From a virus (taxonomy: Duplodnaviria; Heunggongvirae; Uroviricota; Caudoviricetes), in IMG/VR virus record IMGVR_UViG_2687453529_000003: DNA of 47,629 nucleotides; one strand, 5' to 3'. Positions 1 through 42,103 of the stretch are shown in pieces. The position numbers and the translations under genes are program-made. The notes below the pieces were generated by a model. The model did not search any database. It saw only the letters and a program-made list of their open reading frames with translations, and was not told where the DNA came from. Numbering within the stretch: position 1 is the first letter of the stretch; the number at the start of each line of letters is the position of its first letter.

Positions 1-54
1 CATCCAACCGCAGCACGTTCTTGCTTAAGACGTGCTGCGGCATAATCCCAATGA

Positions 55-639
55 TTACTCCCTGACAGGATTTACAGGCCACTCAATATCAGGTGCAGTT
101 GATGTATCAACACGGTTCAGCAATACCCGATACTTTTTCCAGGCTTCCAGCAATGAGGTTTCTTCCTCCGTTGCAATTTCCAGATCTGCAGCATCCTGAA
201 GCGGCGCAATATGCTCACTGGCTACCTGCATCAGGTTGTTTTTTGTTTCTTCCGCCTCCCGGATCCGGAACAGTTTTTCTGCTTCCGTATCCTTCACCCA
301 GGCTGTGCCGTTCCACTTCTGAAACTCCCCTTCCGGCGATAACCAGGTAACATTTTCCGGTAACGGACCGAGTTCAGAAATAAATAACTCGTCCCCTGAC
401 GCTACGTCATAAACCGTTTTACCCCGATGGTCTTCAACGAGATGCCACGATGCCTCATCACTGTTGAAAACAGCCACAAAGCCAGCAGGAATATCTGGTG
501 GTGCAATATCGGTACTGTTTGCTGGCAGACCTGTATGAGGCGGAATATATGCGTCACCTTCACCAATAAATTCATTAGTTCCGGCCAGCAGATTATAAAT
601 TTTTATGGTCCGTGCTTGTTCACTCATTCTGAATGCCAT
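55..639 (-). CDS. tfa: tail fiber assembly protein
   Basis: 194-aa ORF immediately downstream of and overlapping the side tail fiber gene by 1 nt; position and sequence character match lambdoid Tfa chaperones. Confidence 0.75.
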
Positions 640-3600
640 TATGCAAGCCTCACAATATAGTTAAATGCGATGTTTTTGACGGTGTTTTCCGCGTTACCCG
701 CAGCGTTAACGGTGATGGTGTGTCCATGTGAACCAATCGCAACGGAGTGCGTATGCGCACCAATACCTACAGTATGTGCATGTGCGCCAGAACTTGCTGC
801 AGTACCAGACAGCGAGTGGGTATGAGCACCTGCTGACTGTGTCTGAATACGTTGATAATACGATCTATAGGAAGAAGTCTCCGGGCTTACTTGATACTGT
901 GAATTCTGGACATAAGTGAACCCACCGCCATCATAAAATGCTAACGCAGAACCGCCGCCTCCTGGCCAACGAATACCATTACCATGAGTATGAACACCGG
1001 CAGACCCCGTAGAGCCACTCAGACTGTGCGTATGCGCCCCGGTGTTATTCGTGGATTTAGTGCCGTAATCAAACGACGATGTGGTTTTCGTCCCCAAATC
1101 CGTACTGGATGCGCTGGCGCTGTGGGTGTGCGATTTAATGCCGTCCTGTTCCTGAGACAATACGGCCCGGCCACTGGCGGGTTTGCCCTTGATTGTCCAG
1201 CCGCGCATATCTGGAATAACACCTGAAGGATAGGCAATAGCCAGTTTCGGATATGCTGCCTTATCAAACGTCTGCCCCTGCATGATTGCATAACCTGCAG
1301 GTGGTGTATCTGATGGCCACGGCAGCGGAACACCTGGCGGAAACGCTTCAATATTTGCCGAGCCGTCAAATTTTACGCCGTTAATTGTCCTTGCAGTTTG
1401 CAATTTGGTTGCTGTGCTTGCATTACCCGATAAAGATCCAGTGATACCACCACTCGCGTTTAATTTAGTTGCAATTGTAACATTGCCAGTATGGTTACTA
1501 ATTATAAACGGCCTTAAGCTATTGTGCGTACCAAGACTGTTACCCGAATCTGTCAACATAAAATATGTGTTTGATCCATCATTTCGGATAAAGAATCCAT
1601 AGTTGCCATAGGCAATACGCAGACCATTTGCTGACCTTGAAATAACCTCACCAGCAGCAGTTAAACCACCTGAAAGAGTCCCTCCAGTTAATGCCAATGC
1701 CCCAATATTTGAAGGGGTCAATGTGATATTTGCACTACCATCAAATGACACACCGTTAATCGTTCTGGCTGCCTGAAGTTTCGTGGCGGTCGCAGCATTA
1801 CCTGTAGTGTTTTGATTACCGGTAGCGTTGACTCCAGGCAAGTTGATATCTGCCGATCCATCAAATGCCACGCCCCCAATCTTACGTGCTGTCTTGATCT
1901 TGGTCGCAGTATCTGCGTTTCCGGTCAAATTACCAGTAACACTACCACCAACTTTTAGTCCATTACCGATGGACACCAACCCTGATCTTAAGTTTATAGA
2001 GAATGGTCTTAATGAACCGATGTCTCCATTTTCCCCCTCCCCTTCATTAGTCGGAATAAGATGAAGATGATCTTCGGAACGCCTAAAAATAAGGCCAAAG
2101 GCTTGGTTGAATATTCGAAGAGCATTTATCGTGCTGATTTTTAACTGCCCTCCCATTGTGTCGCCAGTTTTTTGAACTGAACTATCTTTAACAGTTTTAA
2201 CTGCCTTTGGCGTTGCCGCCAGCTTTTCACTGGTGCTGTTTGTTGCACTGCTGAGCTGTACTATCCCCTTTTTCGTCGTGCTCGCATCCTCCAGCGCCAC
2301 GGCGGATGCAATATCCTCTGCCCGTTTTGCTGCTGTCTCGGCGCGCGTTGCCGCGGATTCAGCAGCAACTTTGCTCTGAGATGCAGCCGTCGCACTGCCT
2401 GCCGCCTCTGATGCTTTCGTTGTTGCTGTCGTGGCACTACCTTTCGCTGCTGACGCTTGTCTGGTCGCCTCATCTTTTGAAGCAGACGCAGATGATACCG
2501 ATGACGCCGCTGAACTGGCTGACGATGCGGCTGCCGCCTTAGAGGAAGCAGCATTGTCTGCTGAAGTCTTTGCATTTGTTTCAGAGGTTTTTGCTGCAGA
2601 AGCAGACCTCGCTGCTGCAGTGGCTTGCTCAGTGGCTTTGCCAGCCTTCGTTGTGGCTGTTGAAGCGGATGATGCGGCGCTTTCTGCCGATTTTCCGGCG
2701 GCGGTGGCACTGGCTGAGGCCTGCCCGGCACTTGTTGACGCGGCACTGGCAGATAATGCAGCCGCTGTTTTTGAACCTGCCGCAGCTGAGGCGCTCTGTC
2801 CCGCTGCTGTTTCAGAAGACTTAGCGTTCGTCTCGGACGTTTTTGCCGCCTTCGCGGAATTTCCTGCCGCCGTTGCCGAGGAAGCTGCACTACTGGCACT
2901 TGATGATGCATTCGTTTCTGAAGATTTCGCTGCCTCTTTTGAGGCCGCCGCACCCCGTGCCGAGGTGGCAGCTTCTGACGCCTTCGTGGTCGCTGTGGAT
3001 GCAGAAGTGGCTGCCGATTTTTGTGATGCTGCGGCATTCGTTTCTGACGTTTTCGCGGCACTGGCGCTGGTAGCTGCCGCGCTTTTTGATGACTCTGCAG
3101 CAGCAGCACTTTTTGCTGCTTCACGGGCCTTTGTCGATGCCGTTCCTGCGCTGGAAGACGCTGACTGAGCCGACGACGCGGCCTGTCCGGCTGACGTGCT
3201 GGCGGCACGTGCTGAGGCTGCAGCATCGGTTGCATGAGTTGCCGCCTCGCTGGCTGATGCACTGGCATCGCTGGCTGATTTTTTCGCGGCTGCCGTATTC
3301 TGTGCAACCGCTGAGGCGTTACGTGACACCTCTTCCACCATCTGCTCAAAGCGGCGCAGTGCCTCCGGTCGGACATCATCCTCCGTCATGGCACCGAGAA
3401 AATCATTCAGCGTACCTGGTCTGGAACCTTCATAGACGGTAATGGTCCCGGCATGTGAAGGCGGAAAACCTTCAACCAGCAGGGTGACGCTGTACTGACC
3501 ATGCTCAACATCCATGCTGTAACGTCCGGCTTCATCCGGATTTTCAGAGGCCACCGTGTTCACCACCACCGTGCTGCTGGTTCGTCTGGCCTTCAGCACA

Positions 3601-4483: not shown

Positions 4484-7400
4484 TCAGCTAATCGTGATGC
4501 CTGCAGTGGCTTTCTTCATCACCACAACCAGCAAATCGCTGATACTTGCTGTGGGATACCAGTTATTTACCAGCCATGCTGACACCGAAAACTCCAGTGT
4601 CATGTGACCGTGACCGGCAGGCATATCAATAACACCACTGTAAATCAGCGTATTATCCAGCGCGGTACGGTTATAAATTTCAGCACCGTTTTTCCGCACT
4701 ATCAGACGGCATGAGGAGTAAATATCAGTATGCTCTTTCTCATGTTTAGCGCCGCTGAATGCCACCGCCGGAATAACAATCTGCCGGTCAAACGGCTGAT
4801 CGTCATAAACCCTGACGGTAATGGTTCCTGATGGCCACCGCTCCGGTGCACGGGAGTCCCGGGGGAAAGCTTTGCCCACTGTTTTAACGAGATCGCCTTC
4901 AATCTGGTTCGCGGACAATTTTCCCAGAACCCGACAGTTCTCGTTAATCGTGACGTTGTTGAGCGTCCCGGAGTTCGCATTCACGTTACCGCTGATATCG
5001 GCATTTTTCGCCGTCAGCCGCCCGTCCGGTGTCAGGGAAAATGCCGGAGGATTACCGCCGCTGGTAATGGTGGGAGCCGTCAGATATTTCAGGAACACTT
5101 CATTCATAAATATCTGATCGCCCTGACCAACAAACATCGGCTTTGTGTTGCCATTCGCAGGATTAATCATCGCAATCCTGTCTGCCGCCAGCAGCACCTG
5201 ACTCTGCATTCCTGCTGGCGTATTCTCAATACCGGCACCGATACCCGCAATATAAAGGCGTCCGTCCTGCATCTGCTGCAGTTTCACGGCCCACATGCTG
5301 TTCAGGTTATTATTTGTATCAACCTGAACTTTCTGTATCTGCTGGATTGCCGCACTCTGATTTTCCAGTTTTTTATTGACGGTCTGCGTGATTTCATTGC
5401 TGACATTCGTAATGGACGTCCTGATTTCAGCCAGGTCCGGCGCAAGCTGACCGTTATCAATCTGCGTCCACAGCTCCTGGGCCAGATGTGTTTTCCCGAT
5501 TTCTCCTTTGAAAAAATCCAGGTAACCTTCCGCATCATCGCTCGCCCGACCGACAGCCTCCACGAATGCCGATTTGCCAACAGTATTCACACTGCGGATA
5601 TAAAAATAATAATCATGGCCCGGTTTGATATTGATACTGGCAGCTATCCAGTACAGCGCCGAGCCAAGATAGCGGGCTGCGGTTTCAACCTGCCTGATAT
5701 CCGCAATCCGCTTTTCCGAGAACCAGAACTCAAACTGTACCGTCGGGTCATAAACGGCAAGATGTGGCGTTGCGGTTATCTGAAAATAGCCCGGCGTCAG
5801 CTCAATCCGCGACGGTGCTGCCGGTGCGGTAATCCGGAAGGTGGTGGTGGCAGGTTCACCCTGCTGGCCATAGCTGTTTATCGCCCGCACCGTCAGGGTG
5901 TATTCCCCGAGCGGCAGGCCGCTGAAACGGTGCTCCGTGTCTGCGGTGATGGCGGTGGTCACCAGTCTGGCATCCGTTCCCTTACCACTGGTCAGGCGCA
6001 GACTGAAGCGCACACCCTTCACCACCCGCGGCGTGTCCCATTTCGCCTGCGCCAGATACTGGCCGTCAGCTGCGCTCACCTCCACCGTCAGGTGCTGCAC
6101 TGCCGGTGGGATGACGCTGTTCAGGGAACCTGACTGCGGCTCAAAGCGGGCACCGTTATCCACGATGGCTTCTTTTTCCGGTACGTGCTGCACCGCCGTG
6201 ATGGCAAAGGTGCCGTCCGTGTTTTCCCGGACGGAGACACAGCGGAACAGACGACGGCGCAGTGACGGCAGGGAGAGTCCCCACACCCCGTATGTCTCCA
6301 CACCATCAGGCAGGGTACTGACCTGTATCCGGTCCGGCGCGGGGTGTTCGGTGATGTCCACACTCACCGGCTTACCGCTGCCGTTAATCAGGTTCACCGT
6401 GGCGGCACCGGTCTCCGGAAGTGTCACTTCACGGTCCAGCGTCAGGGTGCGGGTGGCAGCATCAATGGACAGGACACGTCCGCCGGTCAGGGTCCCGGCA
6501 TAGTCGTTATCACAGATTTCAATGATGTCACCGGGTGTGTGCCGCAGCCCCTGAGACCCGAGCGTGAAATCCACCGTCTGCGTTTCCAGCAGTTCGGTCT
6601 TTATCACCCACAGTCCGGCACGGTGGGCCTGACCGCGGCTGGTACAGCCGAACGCGTCCATCTTCAGCAGGTTGCGTCCGTAGCGCAGTATGGCTTCCGG
6701 GTCTTCCACCAGTTCCGTGGAGGTCTGCCAGCCGTTCTGCGGGTCGGTGTAATTCACCTCCACCGCCGTGTGCCGGTCCTTCAGGGCACTGAAGCTGTAG
6801 CGGAATCCCACGCCGTTATCATCCACCACCACATCGCTGTTGGTGTACGGCCACACCACATCCGACGGGCGGTCCTGAACGAACGTCAGCGTCTGACCGT
6901 TCCATACCGGCATACAGCGCATCGCAGAGCAGAAATCACTGAGAACGTCCCACGCCTTACGCTGTTGTGCCAGGTACGCATTAAAGGTCATCCGCGGCTC
7001 GGTCCCCCCGAAACCATCCGGGACCGTCTGGTCGCAGTACTGCCCGATGGCATACAGCGCCCACTTGTCCACATCCGCCGCCCCCAGACGTTTTCCCATG
7101 CCGTAGCGCGGGTGAGTCAGCATGTCCCACAGGCACCAGGCCGGGTTGTTGCTGTATGCCGGTTTCAGACTGCCGTCCCAGATACCACTGTACGTGCGTT
7201 TTTCCGGGTCATAGTTTGACGGCACCTGGATGATGCGACCGCGGATATGGTAGTTCACCGTCATCTGCTGGCCGCCGAACTGCTCCGCATCCACCTGCAG
7301 CCCCACAATGGCCGTGTTCGGGTAGCACTGTTTCACATCGATGATTTCGGTGTATGACGACCACAGCGTCTTATTCTGCAGCTGGTCCGTGGTGCTGTCC

Positions 7401-7957
7401 GCCGTCTCCCTGACCATCCGGATGTTAAAGGGCCGGGGAGGCAGATTATCCAGAATCACCGAGGCCAGGAACTGTGAGGTGGTCTTGCCGTTAATGGTGA
7501 CGTCCTTTTCTGTCACCCAGTTACCGTTACGCTGTAACTGAATCAGCAGGCGGACGGATGCCGGGTTACGGTCACCCTTTGAGGTGGTCTCCACCAGTGA
7601 CTGCACCCCGAAGGTAACCCGCAGGCGGTCAATGTTCGCGGACGTAATGGTGCGCGTCACCGGTTTTGCCTTCGTCACTTCCACGCCCAGTCCGGTTTCA
7701 GCTCCGGAGGACTCAAAGCCTTCCGGTGGTGTCTGCTCCTGCTCCCCGGCGCGCCAGACCGCCGTCACACCGTGTATCACGGGATTGCCGTCCGTGTCCG
7801 TCAGTGGGGTTTTGTTCACCAGAATACTCTGCAGTCCCTTCACCGGACCTTCTATCGGTCCCTCACCAATCGCATCAATCACACTCATCATCTGCGTGGA
7901 TTTGAGATTATCCTTCGCCTCACGAGGCGTGTGTGCCTTACCGCCACCTTTTCCCAT
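4484..7957 (-). CDS. J: host specificity protein J (central tail fiber / tail tip)
   Basis: 1157-aa ORF; N-terminus and length match lambda J; follows I in the tail operon. Confidence 0.9.
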
Positions 7958-8063
7958 ACAGCCTTCCCCTGAATAAATTAACCGCCACTTGCCATTCCGT
8001 ACAGAAGTCGGATATCCTTCGCCCGAAAAGCATGAAACACATTTCTGCCATGCTAAAGAGAAA

Positions 8064-8096
8064 CCCCGGTATCAGCAGATACCGGGGTTTTCTTTC
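8064..8096. other. GC-rich hairpin flanked by T/A runs on both strands (possible bidirectional terminator)
   Basis: ccccggtat-cagcag-ataccgggg followed by ttttctttc on the plus strand and preceded by aaagagaaa. Confidence 0.3.
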
Positions 8097-8162
8097 ATGC
8101 CCACCGATAATCCTGTTGGTTAAAACCGGTAATGGCATAAAAATTCTGAATATCTTCACATT

Positions 8163-8190
8163 TTCACAAACTGACTGTGGCGCGTATAAT
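8163..8190 (+). promoter_or_regulatory. near-consensus sigma70-type promoter antisense to the tail operon
   Basis: TTCACA (-35), 16-nt spacer, TATAAT (-10) in the non-coding insert between I and J. Confidence 0.45.
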
Positions 8191-8196
8191 TTCTCT

Positions 8197-8294
8197 GCGT
8201 TAATTTTTTTGTCGTGATATAAGAATAATTCCTTACACTTAATCTTCGTAACTCTCCCGCAGTTCCTGTCCGCGATCACTGCGGGATTTTTTTA
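8197..8294 (+). ncRNA. candidate small RNA of about 100 nt from the I-J intergenic insert
   Basis: region bounded by the promoter at 8163-8190 and the terminator at 8256-8294; no start codon with a ribosome-binding site inside. Confidence 0.3.
8256..8294 (+). terminator. rho-independent terminator
   Basis: stem cccgcag / ctgcggg followed by atttttttatt on the plus strand. Confidence 0.5.
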
Positions 8295-8300
8295 TTCTTT

Positions 8301-8981
8301 TTACCCCTGCCGCCCGATAACCACGACCTTTCCGCCCCCGCCTTCATCACGGGTACTGATGTCCTGGGATATACGGCGGGAGCCAACCAGCATTTCCCCG
8401 TAAGGCACCGGCATCGGGTTACCCTGGGCAATCATGTTATCCAGGGAGGAAAAGTACGTGTTCTGTTTACCGTTATCCGTGCTTTTGTACTCCGGTGTTT
8501 TTGCCTTCGGGGCCAGCATCTGGGCCACACCGCCCAGTATCATGCTGGCCCCCAGTGAAAACAGCATCGTGGTGGCAGAAAAACCGCCGGCACTCAGGGC
8601 TGTACCCCATAACGCCATCGAGGCACCGGCAGTGAAGAAAGAGCCCACGATGGCTGCCGCCCCCAGCACAATCTGCAGTCCACCCTTTCCGGCCCCGGCC
8701 AGTCGCGGCACAATATGGATGACCGTTCCCTCACCCAGCTGTTCGTGAAGACGGGCGTACACCGCCTCCGGTGCCGTGTCATAACCGGCAATACGTATCT
8801 GGTACCAGCCTTCGTTCATCTGACGGCGAAAGCCCGGCACCTGTAACGACAGCGCCCGGATGGCTTCCGCTGCCGTGTTCACATACAGGCTGAGGCGGCG
8901 GCCAAATCGTTGTAAATCCCCGTGAAGGCAGATGCGTGCCAGTGGCGGTGACGCCAGACAGAATGCGTTCGTCGTTGCCAT
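8301..8981 (-). CDS. I: tail assembly protein I
   Basis: 226-aa ORF; N-terminal region matches lambda I (ARICL.GDLQRFGRR motif); overlaps K by 103 bp as in lambda. Confidence 0.85.
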   Translation of the reverse strand: MATTNAFCLASPPLARICLHGDLQRFGRRLSLYVNTAAEAIRALSLQVPGFRRQMNEGWYQIRIAGYDTAPEAVYARLHEQLGEGTVIHIVPRLAGAGKGGLQIVLGAAAIVGSFFTAGASMALWGTALSAGGFSATTMLFSLGASMILGGVAQMLAPKAKTPEYKSTDNGKQNTYFSSLDNMIAQGNPMPVPYGEMLVGSRRISQDISTRDEGGGGKVVVIGRQG

Positions 8982-9622
8982 TTTTCGGAATACCTCTCCC
9001 GTTTACTCAGTTGTTCAGGCAGATGGTGAAGAAGCTCACCGTTGCCGCAGTAAATGGCGGCATGGTTCGGTACCGAAGCACCAAAGCAGCACAGCAGAAT
9101 ATCGCCCGCCTGTGCAGAGGACAGGGGCACCCGGTAAAAGCCGGTGACCGCCATATTGTCCAGGTAAAGGTTCTGACCGTTGCGCCACCAGTCATCCTCG
9201 CGATGAAAATCCGGCATTTCAGTCCCCGCCAGATGATAAGCATCCCGGAACAGCGTGTAACAGTCCGTCACCCCGTGCTCAAAGCGCCGTCCTGTCAGAT
9301 GTGGCACACAGCGGAATTTGTGAATGTCACCCCGGCAGACCAGCCACCAGGGCAGTGCGCTTTTTATCTGCAGCCGCCGGTCAGCCTCGCTCAGCCAGGG
9401 CAGCCCACCGGGATGACTGTGGACCAGTGCCACAATCTCCCCCTGCATCTCTGCCCGCAGCCAGTCTTCCGGTGCGATACGAAAATACGCCTCCGGCTCT
9501 GCAGAAATATTCACACAAGGGATATACCACTCCCCCTCCGGCGTGCTTATCACGAAGCCGCACGACTCCGCAGGCGCACACCGCCGGGCATGCGCCAGAA
9601 TCGCTGATTCAGTCTGTGTCAT
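8879..9622 (-). CDS. K: tail assembly protein K (JAB/MPN plus NlpC/P60-like)
   Basis: start taken at the internal ATG (MTQTES...) just after the L stop; the longer ORF-track form (to 9883) would overlap L; HSHP and cysteine motifs present. Confidence 0.8.
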   Translation of the reverse strand: MTQTESAILAHARRCAPAESCGFVISTPEGEWYIPCVNISAEPEAYFRIAPEDWLRAEMQGEIVALVHSHPGGLPWLSEADRRLQIKSALPWWLVCRGDIHKFRCVPHLTGRRFEHGVTDCYTLFRDAYHLAGTEMPDFHREDDWWRNGQNLYLDNMAVTGFYRVPLSSAQAGDILLCCFGASVPNHAAIYCGNGELLHHLPEQLSKRERYSEKWQRRTHSVWRHRHWHASAFTGIYNDLAAASACM

Positions 9623-30445: not shown

Positions 30446-30481
30446 GGAGTTTACTCACATCTGACAAAATCAATATAAACA

Positions 30482-30505
30482 GCCCCTCCGGAGAGGGGCT
30501 GGAGA
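30482..30505. terminator. hairpin between the two convergent cargo ORFs
   Basis: cagcccctc-cggaga-ggggctgg, followed on the minus strand by a T-rich stretch. Confidence 0.4.
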
Positions 30506-30892
30506 GTGGCGCTATGTGCCATTGCATGGTGCCGGGTGCCTCCCGGTGAATTCAGTACCAGCACCTGAATCCGCGATTATCCCATATACCTACTCGCTGA
30601 TTGCCCCTCCGCACAGGGGGATTCACCATGCCAGTTTCTTTTAACAAACTCCCCGCAAACCAGACAACAGTCAACCGCCTGAATTGTGAAGTATTTAAAA
30701 ATTTCTCCCGCTAACTGATACCCGGCTAACAGTCTGGCGTTTTCTTTTTCAGCAACGGGAAAGCAGCAACCACCACACCCGCCACCAGCACACCGTCAGC
30801 CAGCACTGACATTATCCGGCTGCTGCAATGCCATTCACAAAAACAGTAAGCAATCACTTTTTACCGTAACCGGTGATAATCCAGATATGTAT

Positions 30893-31356: not shown

Positions 31357-31433
31357 TGGCGCGCTGTACTGGATTCGAACCAGTAACCGATTGCTTAGAA
31401 GGCAATTGCTCTGTCCGGCTGAGCTAACAACGC
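31357..31433 (-). tRNA. tRNA-Arg (anticodon UCU)
   Basis: cloverleaf-compatible 77-nt sequence with GTTCGAATCC T-arm, anticodon loop cuUCUaa and encoded CCA. Confidence 0.8.
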
Positions 31434-31534
31434 TGAATACCGATAATGGACCGCCATCGGGGACCCGCCCCCGCACCAACAACCCTGTTATCGTGTCGTC
31501 TGCTCTTCCTGATAAGCTAATGGCGGTTTGTGAT

Positions 31535-31610
31535 GGTGGCCCTTGCTGGATTTGAACCAGCGACCTGGCGATTATGAGTCGCTCGCTCTCACCACTGAGC
31601 TAAAGGGCCG
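31535..31610 (-). tRNA. tRNA with CAU anticodon (Ile2/lysidine type, or Met)
   Basis: 76-nt sequence GGCCCTTTAGCTCAGTGGT...ctCATaa...GGTTCAAATCC...CCA, resembling the ileZ-type tRNA of lambdoid late regions. Confidence 0.8.
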
Positions 31611-41949: not shown

Positions 41950-42013
41950 CCTATTAGGTCGCGCCCAAATTATTAGGCATAGCCTATTGACAAGTAATTA
42001 GGCATTTCCTATA
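41950..42013 (+). promoter_or_regulatory. OL-like operator cluster with strong pL-like promoter
   Basis: repeated TTAGGC...GCCTA operator half-sites; TTGACA, 17-nt spacer, TATAGT on the plus strand. Confidence 0.6.
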
Positions 42014-42103
42014 GTTTTCCCATACCAACCCATCCCGTCCCACACAATACAGGGCAATACCTCGAGTTACCAGGCAGTGGTCAGGGGTTAAGTAGCCAGC
42101 CCG

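Follow-up and report, generated by a model that had tools for sequence, protein, structure and literature searches.

What separates the tail genes I and J in the viral genome IMGVR_UViG_2687453529_000003 (Caudoviricetes), and why is the space so wide? In this genome, the whole 47,629-nucleotide (nt) stretch of which is hereafter called the window, the gap between the two genes spans 343 bp (7958-8300), as against 60 bp in phage lambda (15445-15504). The original prediction, made from the sequence alone, had given these two sizes, which the coordinates bear out, and regarded the whole insert of about 340 bp as the seat of a candidate antisense small RNA (sRNA) that it could not match to any named RNA. 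The gap is real, but the sRNA cassette occupies only about 160 bp of it (8136-8293), and the RNA is no longer without a name, since the family of PasB from enteropathogenic Escherichia coli (EPEC) and EcOnc22-24 from E. coli O157:H7 Sakai fits it by locus, by orientation and by a covariance model. On the evidence of these sequence comparisons, 8136-8293 on the plus strand is a real sRNA gene, a diverged and apparently undescribed member of that family.

Anatomy of the sRNA unit

The elements of the unit, with the evidence that delineates each of them, are as follows.

8136..8162, plus strand: conserved A/T-rich block 5' of the -35 hexamer, ATAAAAATTCTGAATATC (variant alignment)
8163..8190, plus strand: sigma-70 promoter, with -35 TTCACA at 8163-8168, a 16-nt spacer and -10 TATAAT at 8185-8190 (scan, 11/12)
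8197..8293, plus strand: predicted PasB-family sRNA (covariance model R1, PasB alignment, fold)
8229..8255, plus strand: predicted single-stranded base-pairing region (centroid fold, invariant columns)
8256..8293, plus strand: intrinsic terminator and Hfq-binding module, comprising a CCCGCAG/CTGCGGG stem, a variable loop and U7 (scan, fold, alignment)

The promoter, TTCACA-16-TATAAT directed against the tail operon, had been placed at 8163-8190 and was recovered there with a match at 11 of 12 positions. Sigma-70 sites scoring at least 11/12 are rare in the 47.6-kb window: two were observed on both strands together, compared to 0.38 expected from first-order Markov simulations. The other one, TTGACA-17-TATAGT at 41987-42015 (+), lies about 1 kb upstream of DicF. 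The A/T-rich block preceding the -35 hexamer has a mean pairwise identity of 0.92 over 17 variants and may be an UP element.

A clean intrinsic terminator had been expected about 70 nt past the promoter, and both the terminator scan (8269-8285, followed by ATTTTTTTAT) and folding, which extends the hairpin to 8255-8285, agree with this. The stem conserved across the family pairs CCCGCAG (8256-8262) with CTGCGGG (8279-8285), its seven pairs being invariant in 15-16 of 16 alleles, and is followed by the U7 run at 8287-8293, the end of which is separated from the stop codon of I by 7 nt. The stem begins 65 nt past the end of the -10 hexamer, and the predicted transcript (8197-8293) would measure 97 nt, or about 84 nt if its 5' end corresponds to the annotated 5' end of PasB (about 8210). 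As anticipated, the list of open reading frames (ORFs) and the sequence itself contain no ATG between promoter and terminator; no ORF of at least 20 amino acids (aa) starts in this interval, and no translation proceeds beyond two codons.

The promoter-terminator pair is retained at the I-J junction in all 17 full-length variant loci from other E. coli and phages, which far exceeds chance. An 18th variant locus, with sodC in the gap, retains the RNA body and terminator and lacks the promoter.

Relationship to PasB and EcOnc22-24

Five prophage sRNAs were discovered in EPEC E2348/69 by mapping RNA interactions through ligation and sequencing (RIL-seq) on Hfq (Pearl Mizrahi et al. 2021, PMC8550237). 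One of them, PasB (pathogenicity-associated sRNA B), is an 83-nt RNA of prophage PP6 located at NC_011601 1466343-1466261 (-) (Table S6 of PMC8550237). It was verified by Northern blot, shows RNA-seq log2 fold changes of -6.8 and -2.4 in delta-hfq, and is listed in 37 RIL-seq interactions, nearly always as the second RNA of the chimeras, with many trans partners from both the core and the accessory genome (PMC8550237).

In prophage PP6, I occupies 1465674-1466255 and J begins at 1466496, leaving a gap of 240 bp in which PasB runs antisense and ends 6 nt from I. The window thus has in common with PP6 the I-J junction, the antisense orientation and a terminator abutting the stop codon of I. The promoter hexamers and their 16-nt spacing are identical in the two, as are the terminator arms and the U7 tail; the upstream A/T block is shared, and the TCCTT and ATCTT motifs, the U run and the first transcribed bases align. 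The reverse complement of the PasB Northern probe matches the window at 20 of 23 nt (8270-8289). An IS009 RNA lies in the flank of the window, and IS009 is a typical neighbor of PasB loci according to Zhu, Shabalina and Storz (2026; bioRxiv 10.64898/2026.05.13.724894). The two loci differ in the size of the gap (240 bp versus 343 bp) and in its left module and hairpin.

To quantify this relationship a covariance model, R1, was constructed from 7 alleles, with the window and window-like sequences excluded. It found a single match in the window, at 8197-8293 (+), which scored 67.2 bits (E 4.7e-10) and was full length, covering model positions 1-97.

A second connection leads to the Sakai strain, in which EcOnc22 of prophage Sp15 gives a Northern signal at about 85 nt and is less stable in delta-hfq, with homologues EcOnc23 in Sp14 and EcOnc24 in Sp11 (Tree et al. 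2014, PMC4104026, Table S2). We noted cassettes in the I-J gaps of Sp15 and Sp14 (NC_002695.2 2902836-2902926 (+) and 2676767-2676857 (+)), scoring 94.3 bits with R1, and the 2014 peak coordinates of EcOnc22 and EcOnc23 lie 122-124 nt below them. The table of 2014 appears to be offset from NC_002695.2, as two copies of the sRNA HnrS (EcOnc10 and EcOnc12, assigned to HnrS by its authors) meet their own Hfq peaks only with a shift of about +137 nt. When this shift is applied, the Hfq peaks of EcOnc22 and EcOnc23 from cross-linking and analysis of cDNA (CRAC) fall within the I-J cassette, on the same strand. Hence EcOnc22, EcOnc23 and EcOnc24 are likely to be the RNA of the I-J cassette. The Sakai gaps hold the same cassette as the window, though the RNA of the Sakai allele is 63% identical to that of the window. 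The offset of about +137 nt was noted at 1.78 and 2.23 Mb, and reuse of the published table without it lands beside the RNAs.

The PasB and EcOnc22/23 units bear out what had been predicted for the window, namely an independent antisense non-coding transcript of about 100 nt lying tail-to-tail with I.

Divergence of the pairing region

Comparison of the window with the EPEC locus segment by segment revealed a very uneven distribution of identity:

Upstream A/T block: 0.93
Promoter: 0.93
5' leader: 0.77
Variable part: 0.53
Single-stranded part: 0.47
Terminator arms: 1.00
Terminator loop: 0.62
Last 150 nt of I: 0.97
First 150 nt of J: 0.93

The pairing region has diverged far more than its surroundings, the tail genes I and J included. 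Given that the body of the RNA is about 50% identical to PasB, the target set of the window allele probably differs from that of PasB.

Divergence of this degree bears on how the family has been surveyed. The PasB survey of Zhu et al. used an 83-nt query with a word size of 28 and more than 75% coverage, and its relaxed search left out Escherichia and Shigella; it reported only variants at the level of single-nucleotide polymorphisms ('a few nucleotides') and described PasB as the least diverse Pas RNA (bioRxiv 10.64898/2026.05.13.724894). Our replica of that design returned 999 places in 956 genomes, every one of them with at least 90% identity. The 83-nt PasB query yields no match in the window at word size 28 (megablast), and with blastn at word size 11 it gives a single 25-nt match to the terminator, at 30% coverage. 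The published variant PasB-2 (C27A) equals the O157-type allele L014 of our set, which confirms the mapping of the PasB coordinates. Judged by homology, then, the window RNA is a member of the family that lies beyond the near-identical PasB variants described so far.

Distribution and variant loci

The distribution of the cassette was determined with a 151-nt query and sensitive blastn in 5426 complete E. coli genomes, 1775 of which carry it at 80% query coverage or more. By best-hit identity, 632 records fall at 99% or above, 17 at 95-99%, 187 at 90-95%, 187 at 80-90% and 829 at 60-80%. The window allele, with at least 99% identity, is accordingly present in 632 E. coli records, or about 12% of the complete genomes; these are mostly extraintestinal isolates and include S88, CE10, ATCC 25922 and ST131 isolates, none of which annotates the sRNA. 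The allele also occurs in E. albertii and, at 97% identity, in phage PhiR5_1, which is active on E. coli C. The 343-bp gap as such is found in 1661 of the 5426 genomes, and is unannotated among the records listed.

Outside Escherichia an exact-pattern scan found no true carrier; apart from E. albertii the only match was a 3.4-kb contig labelled 'Streptomyces flavalbus' (NZ_JBHTEB010000006.1 1-3408), which is 97.4% identical to window 6015-9429 (J-sRNA-I-K) and almost certainly represents contamination with an E. coli prophage.

The I-J junction is a hot spot, in which both tandem units and sodC are encountered. Strain STEC1587 (NZ_CP129259.1 1720-2641) has an I-J gap of 922 bp with four tandem PasB-like units at a spacing of about 225 bp (1872-1962, 2095-2191, 2321-2415 and 2543-2635, scoring 92, 20, 42 and 85 bits respectively with R1), and strain 154 of serotype O22:H8 has two tandem units in its gap (locus L011, 321-744). 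Units of such arrays differ in body sequence within one locus. The Pas literature ascribes multiple copies to multiple prophages rather than to tandem duplication.

In strain 14EC017 (locus L022, 1756-2606) the gap contains sodC, encoding a Cu/Zn superoxide dismutase, on the strand of the sRNA and equipped with a promoter region and terminator of its own. This locus has lost the PasB-type promoter, and the sRNA body and terminator persist about 90 nt downstream of sodC. A gap of the same type is present in the Stx2a phage Stx2_EH1846 (H125). We considered sodC as the ancestor of the cassette and rejected this, because the presence of a separate promoter and terminator and the loss of the sRNA promoter mark the sodC variant as a secondary insertion.

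Predicted structure and target searches

The predicted RNA is organized as a U-rich stretch, an unstructured A/U-rich region, a GC hairpin and a U7 tail. A GC hairpin with a U tail and a U/A-rich single strand upstream of it is the usual Hfq-binding module, for which Otaka (2011) and Ishikawa (2012) are cited. Folding of the single sequence leaves about 8236-8254 unpaired, ahead of the terminator. Within the pairing region two motifs stand out, UCCUUA at 8230-8235, which resembles an anti-Shine-Dalgarno sequence, and AAUCUUC at 8241-8247, of which ATCTT is invariant in all alleles. The folding model suggests that the seed probably lies around these two motifs.

Within the window the complement of the single-stranded region has no second match that could serve as a trans target. 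The gene hha, which is repressed by the prophage sRNA HnrS, was considered as a shared target, as the invariant AUCUUC resembles the HnrS seed, but no pairing was found at the hha ribosome-binding site and the candidate was dropped. Duplexfold energies of the whole window RNA with hha were no different from those of shuffled sequences. We also observed, post hoc, that AAUAAUUC at 8223-8230 pairs perfectly with GAAUUAUU, an 8-nt A/U-rich match at about -25 to -18 of the hha start (K-12 tomB-hha, locus L027) that leaves the ribosome-binding site uncovered.

Comparison with other RNAs and with morons

Rfam includes no model of PasB, and in line with this Rfam models gave no match on 8 related loci, among them PasB of E2348/69 itself. 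Matches below threshold in the gap of the window are look-alikes of terminator hairpins and reflect the hairpin at 8064-8096. Two identities were examined and rejected. AgvB and AsxR are located downstream of PR', are unrelated in sequence, and their Rfam models miss the window. HnrS (EcOnc10-12) maps between Rz and terminase in Sp9 and Sp12 and is not matched by blastn in the window; AUCUUC is all that the window RNA has in common with it, and the window RNA lacks the CUUCUACC through which HnrS base-pairs at the ribosome-binding site of hha.

AgvB/AsxR, HnrS, PasA/PasC, PasD/STnc100 and DicF nevertheless resemble the window RNA in general design: all are short, associate with Hfq, have a promoter and an intrinsic terminator of their own and lie between phage genes, with conserved expression signals, variable pairing regions and copies spread through multiple prophages. 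They differ from it in their positions on the phage map and share no sequence similarity with it. The moron concept in lambdoid phages (lom, bor, sodC), reportedly described by Juhala and coworkers in 2000, offers a further parallel. Like a moron, the cassette is extra DNA between late genes that has a promoter and terminator of its own and would be expressed from the repressed prophage, and sodC occurs in the very same gap; unlike morons, the cassette carries a non-coding RNA as its cargo and points against the operon.

Proposed function and alternative explanations

We consider it probable that the window RNA is an Hfq-dependent sRNA that acts in trans by base-pairing and is transcribed from a sigma-70 promoter of its own in the repressed prophage. 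According to this proposal, the near-consensus promoter, independent of the Q-dependent late promoter, would give rise in the lysogen to a transcript of about 84-97 nt, and transcription would halt at the intrinsic terminator with its U7 tail, just short of the end of I. Hfq would then stabilise the RNA through the terminator hairpin, the U tail and the upstream U/A-rich single strand, by analogy with PasB and EcOnc22-24, and the unstructured region at about 8229-8255 would pair in trans with host and prophage mRNAs.

Several observations weigh against this proposal. For the window allele we infer expression, the exact 5' end, the seed and the targets, whereas the data on expression, Hfq dependence and partners come from other alleles, and the mapping of EcOnc22 rests on a coordinate shift that was itself inferred. 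The window RNA is 66% identical to PasB over the 97-nt region and 73% over the 83-nt region, the variable and single-stranded parts reaching only 47-53%, and on this comparison the targets of PasB would not be transferable to the window allele. The targets of EcOnc22 were given as unknown in a 2021 review, and Zhu et al. regard the function of Pas sRNAs as still to be elucidated (bioRxiv 10.64898/2026.05.13.724894). Rfam 15 gave no match in the gap at the gathering threshold, its models AgvB (RF02702), AsxR (RF02703), IsrG and STnc100 included. RNAalifold, run on 16 alleles, predicts solely the 7-bp terminator stem, in which there is no covariation because the stem is invariant; a helix between nt 3-11 and 42-50 is weakly supported, with 83% paired cells and few double changes in an alignment that was fitted to the model. 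Moreover, the -10 hexamer predicts a start 15 nt upstream of the annotated 5' end of PasB, making the exact 5' end of the sRNA uncertain. This annotated end and the shifted CRAC peaks alike begin about 14-16 nt inside the predicted start (G8197 in the window), an offset for which processing after the U run or low read coverage might be responsible.

We weighed three other explanations for the locus. That the gap encodes a small protein is, in our assessment, very close to untenable. A mechanical ORF of 113 aa does exist on the operon strand (7938-8279), and the records of phages 1720a-02 and PhiR12_1 annotate ORFs of 32-50 aa here. The original prediction had itself named a reading frame conserved in related phages as the finding that would speak for a coding remnant, and among 14 variants we found no conserved ORF, its presence, frame and length differing in each. 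Two near-identical long-gap loci, L009 and L014, interrupt the 113-aa ORF, which has no Pfam match and overlaps the start of J out of frame. A unit that is non-coding could still be a relic, whose promoter and terminator were left behind by a moron cassette and whose transcript has no selected function, with the body under relaxed constraint. In keeping with this, the I-J gap is a moron site, where 14EC017 and the Stx2a phage carry sodC on the sRNA strand, upstream of the sRNA body and terminator; the flanks have diverged far less than the body, and there is no covariation. We nonetheless regard a relic as unlikely. The promoter, UP block and terminator have mean identities of 0.80-0.99 across alleles, and TCCTT and ATCTT are invariant even in the body; about one complete E. 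coli genome in three has kept the unit, which in some has been amplified to 2-4 tandem copies; accumulation of the EPEC and Sakai alleles depends on Hfq, and they have many partners; and the sodC variant looks like a secondary insertion rather than an ancestor.

The same junction invites an explanation in cis, in which the RNA would pair with the phage's own late I-J transcript, triggering its cleavage or altering the expression of J when the prophage is induced or late transcription leaks. By construction the RNA is perfectly complementary to the I-J intercistronic segment, the unit stays at one junction in every allele despite its variable body, and a hairpin on the operon strand always stands between the cassette and J, as might be expected of a regulated or processed point. 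Yet the RNA stops before I and, in the window, at least 239 nt from the start of J, so that ribosome-binding sites and coding sequences lie outside it; many trans partners occur in chimeras with PasB, which reaches high levels in lysogens, whose late operon is normally silent; and lambda carries the hairpin without the cassette. A cis-antisense role therefore strikes us as quite improbable. Trans-acting regulation through Hfq remains the explanation we favor.

A more specific and decidedly tentative extension, to which we would give somewhat less than even credence, is that the I-J cassette is a 'seed-swapping' locus. Here a fixed promoter and a fixed terminator/Hfq module would bracket a fast-diverging pairing region that is shuffled between alleles and sometimes multiplied into arrays of 2-4 different units, and the window allele would be a distinct regulator, rather than a variant of PasB, with a target set of its own.

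The flanks of the cassette and the J-side hairpin

The remaining features of the gap and the genes that bound it are listed below.

4484..7957, minus strand: J, tail tip / host-specificity gene, the downstream flank of the gap in the direction of the operon (ORF list and Pfam)
7958..8063, minus strand: J-proximal spacer with the J ribosome-binding site, part of the left module of the long-type gap (sequence)
8064..8096, no strand assigned: symmetric hairpin AAACCCCGGTATC-AGCA-GATACCGGGGTTT with T runs on both strands (fold z, comparison)
8301..8981, minus strand: I, tail assembly gene (ORF list, Pfam Lambda_tail_I and annotation of identical loci)

The J ORF contains seven Pfam domains of the GpJ/tail-tip type, of which FNIII-A_GpJ, Ig_J, Phage-tail_3, Phage_Tail_Tip and Ig_GpJ_C were named, while homologues of I in RefSeq are annotated from an internal start, with a length of 582 nt. 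The left module of the long-type gap (7958-8140) has copies of at least 99% identity in 13 phage records (PPompW and others) and no diverged homologues, and it is missing from the short-gap variants of about 240 bp. With all its copies at least 99% identical, this module provides no comparative information.

The original prediction had pointed to a second hairpin with flanking T runs at 8064-8096. It is real and strong, with a fold z of -5.7 on the plus and -5.1 on the minus strand, but it is separate from the sRNA and has a counterpart in lambda. The 60-bp gap of lambda consists essentially of a hairpin, AAACCGCC-TGCG-GGCGGTTT followed by TTGTCATTT, and the J ribosome-binding site (locus L021, about 766-789). 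In the short-gap relatives the cassette is separated from J by another hairpin, CAGGCACCC-loop-GGGTGCCTG followed by TTGTTTTTG on the operon strand, which the terminator scan calls an operon-sense terminator in E2348/69 (locus L002, 6431-6454) and in STEC1587 (locus L023, 1777-1800) and which shows a compensatory change from CACCC/GGGTG to CATCC/GGATG among these variants. Lambda and every variant examined thus have, on the operon strand, a terminator-like hairpin that closely precedes the ribosome-binding site of J. Since lambda and the short-gap variants carry a positional counterpart, the hairpin at 8064-8096 represents an ancestral element of the I-J junction in its local form and is not a part of the sRNA. 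The hairpins of the different gap types are unrelated in sequence, and they sit inside an operon that needs read-through. The element might terminate transcription that has not been modified by Q, or signal where the mRNA ends or is processed.

About 45 nt upstream of this hairpin we also noticed a weak promoter-like site on the plus strand (7989-8018, TTGCCA-18-TATCCT, 9/12). Together with the hairpin, which has a T run on the plus strand too, it could define a second RNA of about 80 nt at about 8025-8103, in tandem with the PasB-like unit; all copies of this candidate module (7989-8103) are at least 99% identical and carry no comparative signal.

Other RNA genes of the window

Rfam models detect several further RNAs in the window. 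The IS009 RNA mentioned above (RF02111; 98-296 (-), 224 bits) is full length and lies downstream of the tail-fibre gene. STnc100 (RF02076) is found at 30471-30660 (-) with 132 bits; a relationship between it and PasD has been proposed by Zhu et al. (bioRxiv 10.64898/2026.05.13.724894). A sok antitoxin RNA (RF01794; 35974-36149 (-), 117 bits) indicates that a type I toxin-antitoxin system of the hok/sok type is presumably present in the prophage, and DicF (RF00039; 43042-43093 (+), 77 bits) is full length. Two transfer RNA (tRNA) genes lie at 31357-31433 (-) and 31534-31609 (-), a tRNA-Arg (TCT) and a tRNA with a CAT anticodon, tRNA-Met according to ARAGORN.

Implications

The window sRNA reveals no new kind of mechanism, and its family is known from experiment. 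What is new is a common class of alleles that fell outside the design of the published survey and whose pairing region has diverged faster than its surroundings. With several allele classes, and identities of the RNA down to about 60%, the family is broader than the description of PasB as the least variable Pas RNA conveys. Should the seed-swapping interpretation be true, the family would be far more diverse than described and about three times more widespread, at about 33% of genomes instead of about 12%. If the targets of the alleles do differ, lambdoid prophages would equip otherwise similar strains with different post-transcriptional regulators, which would matter both for the comparison of regulation and virulence between pathotypes and for genome annotation.

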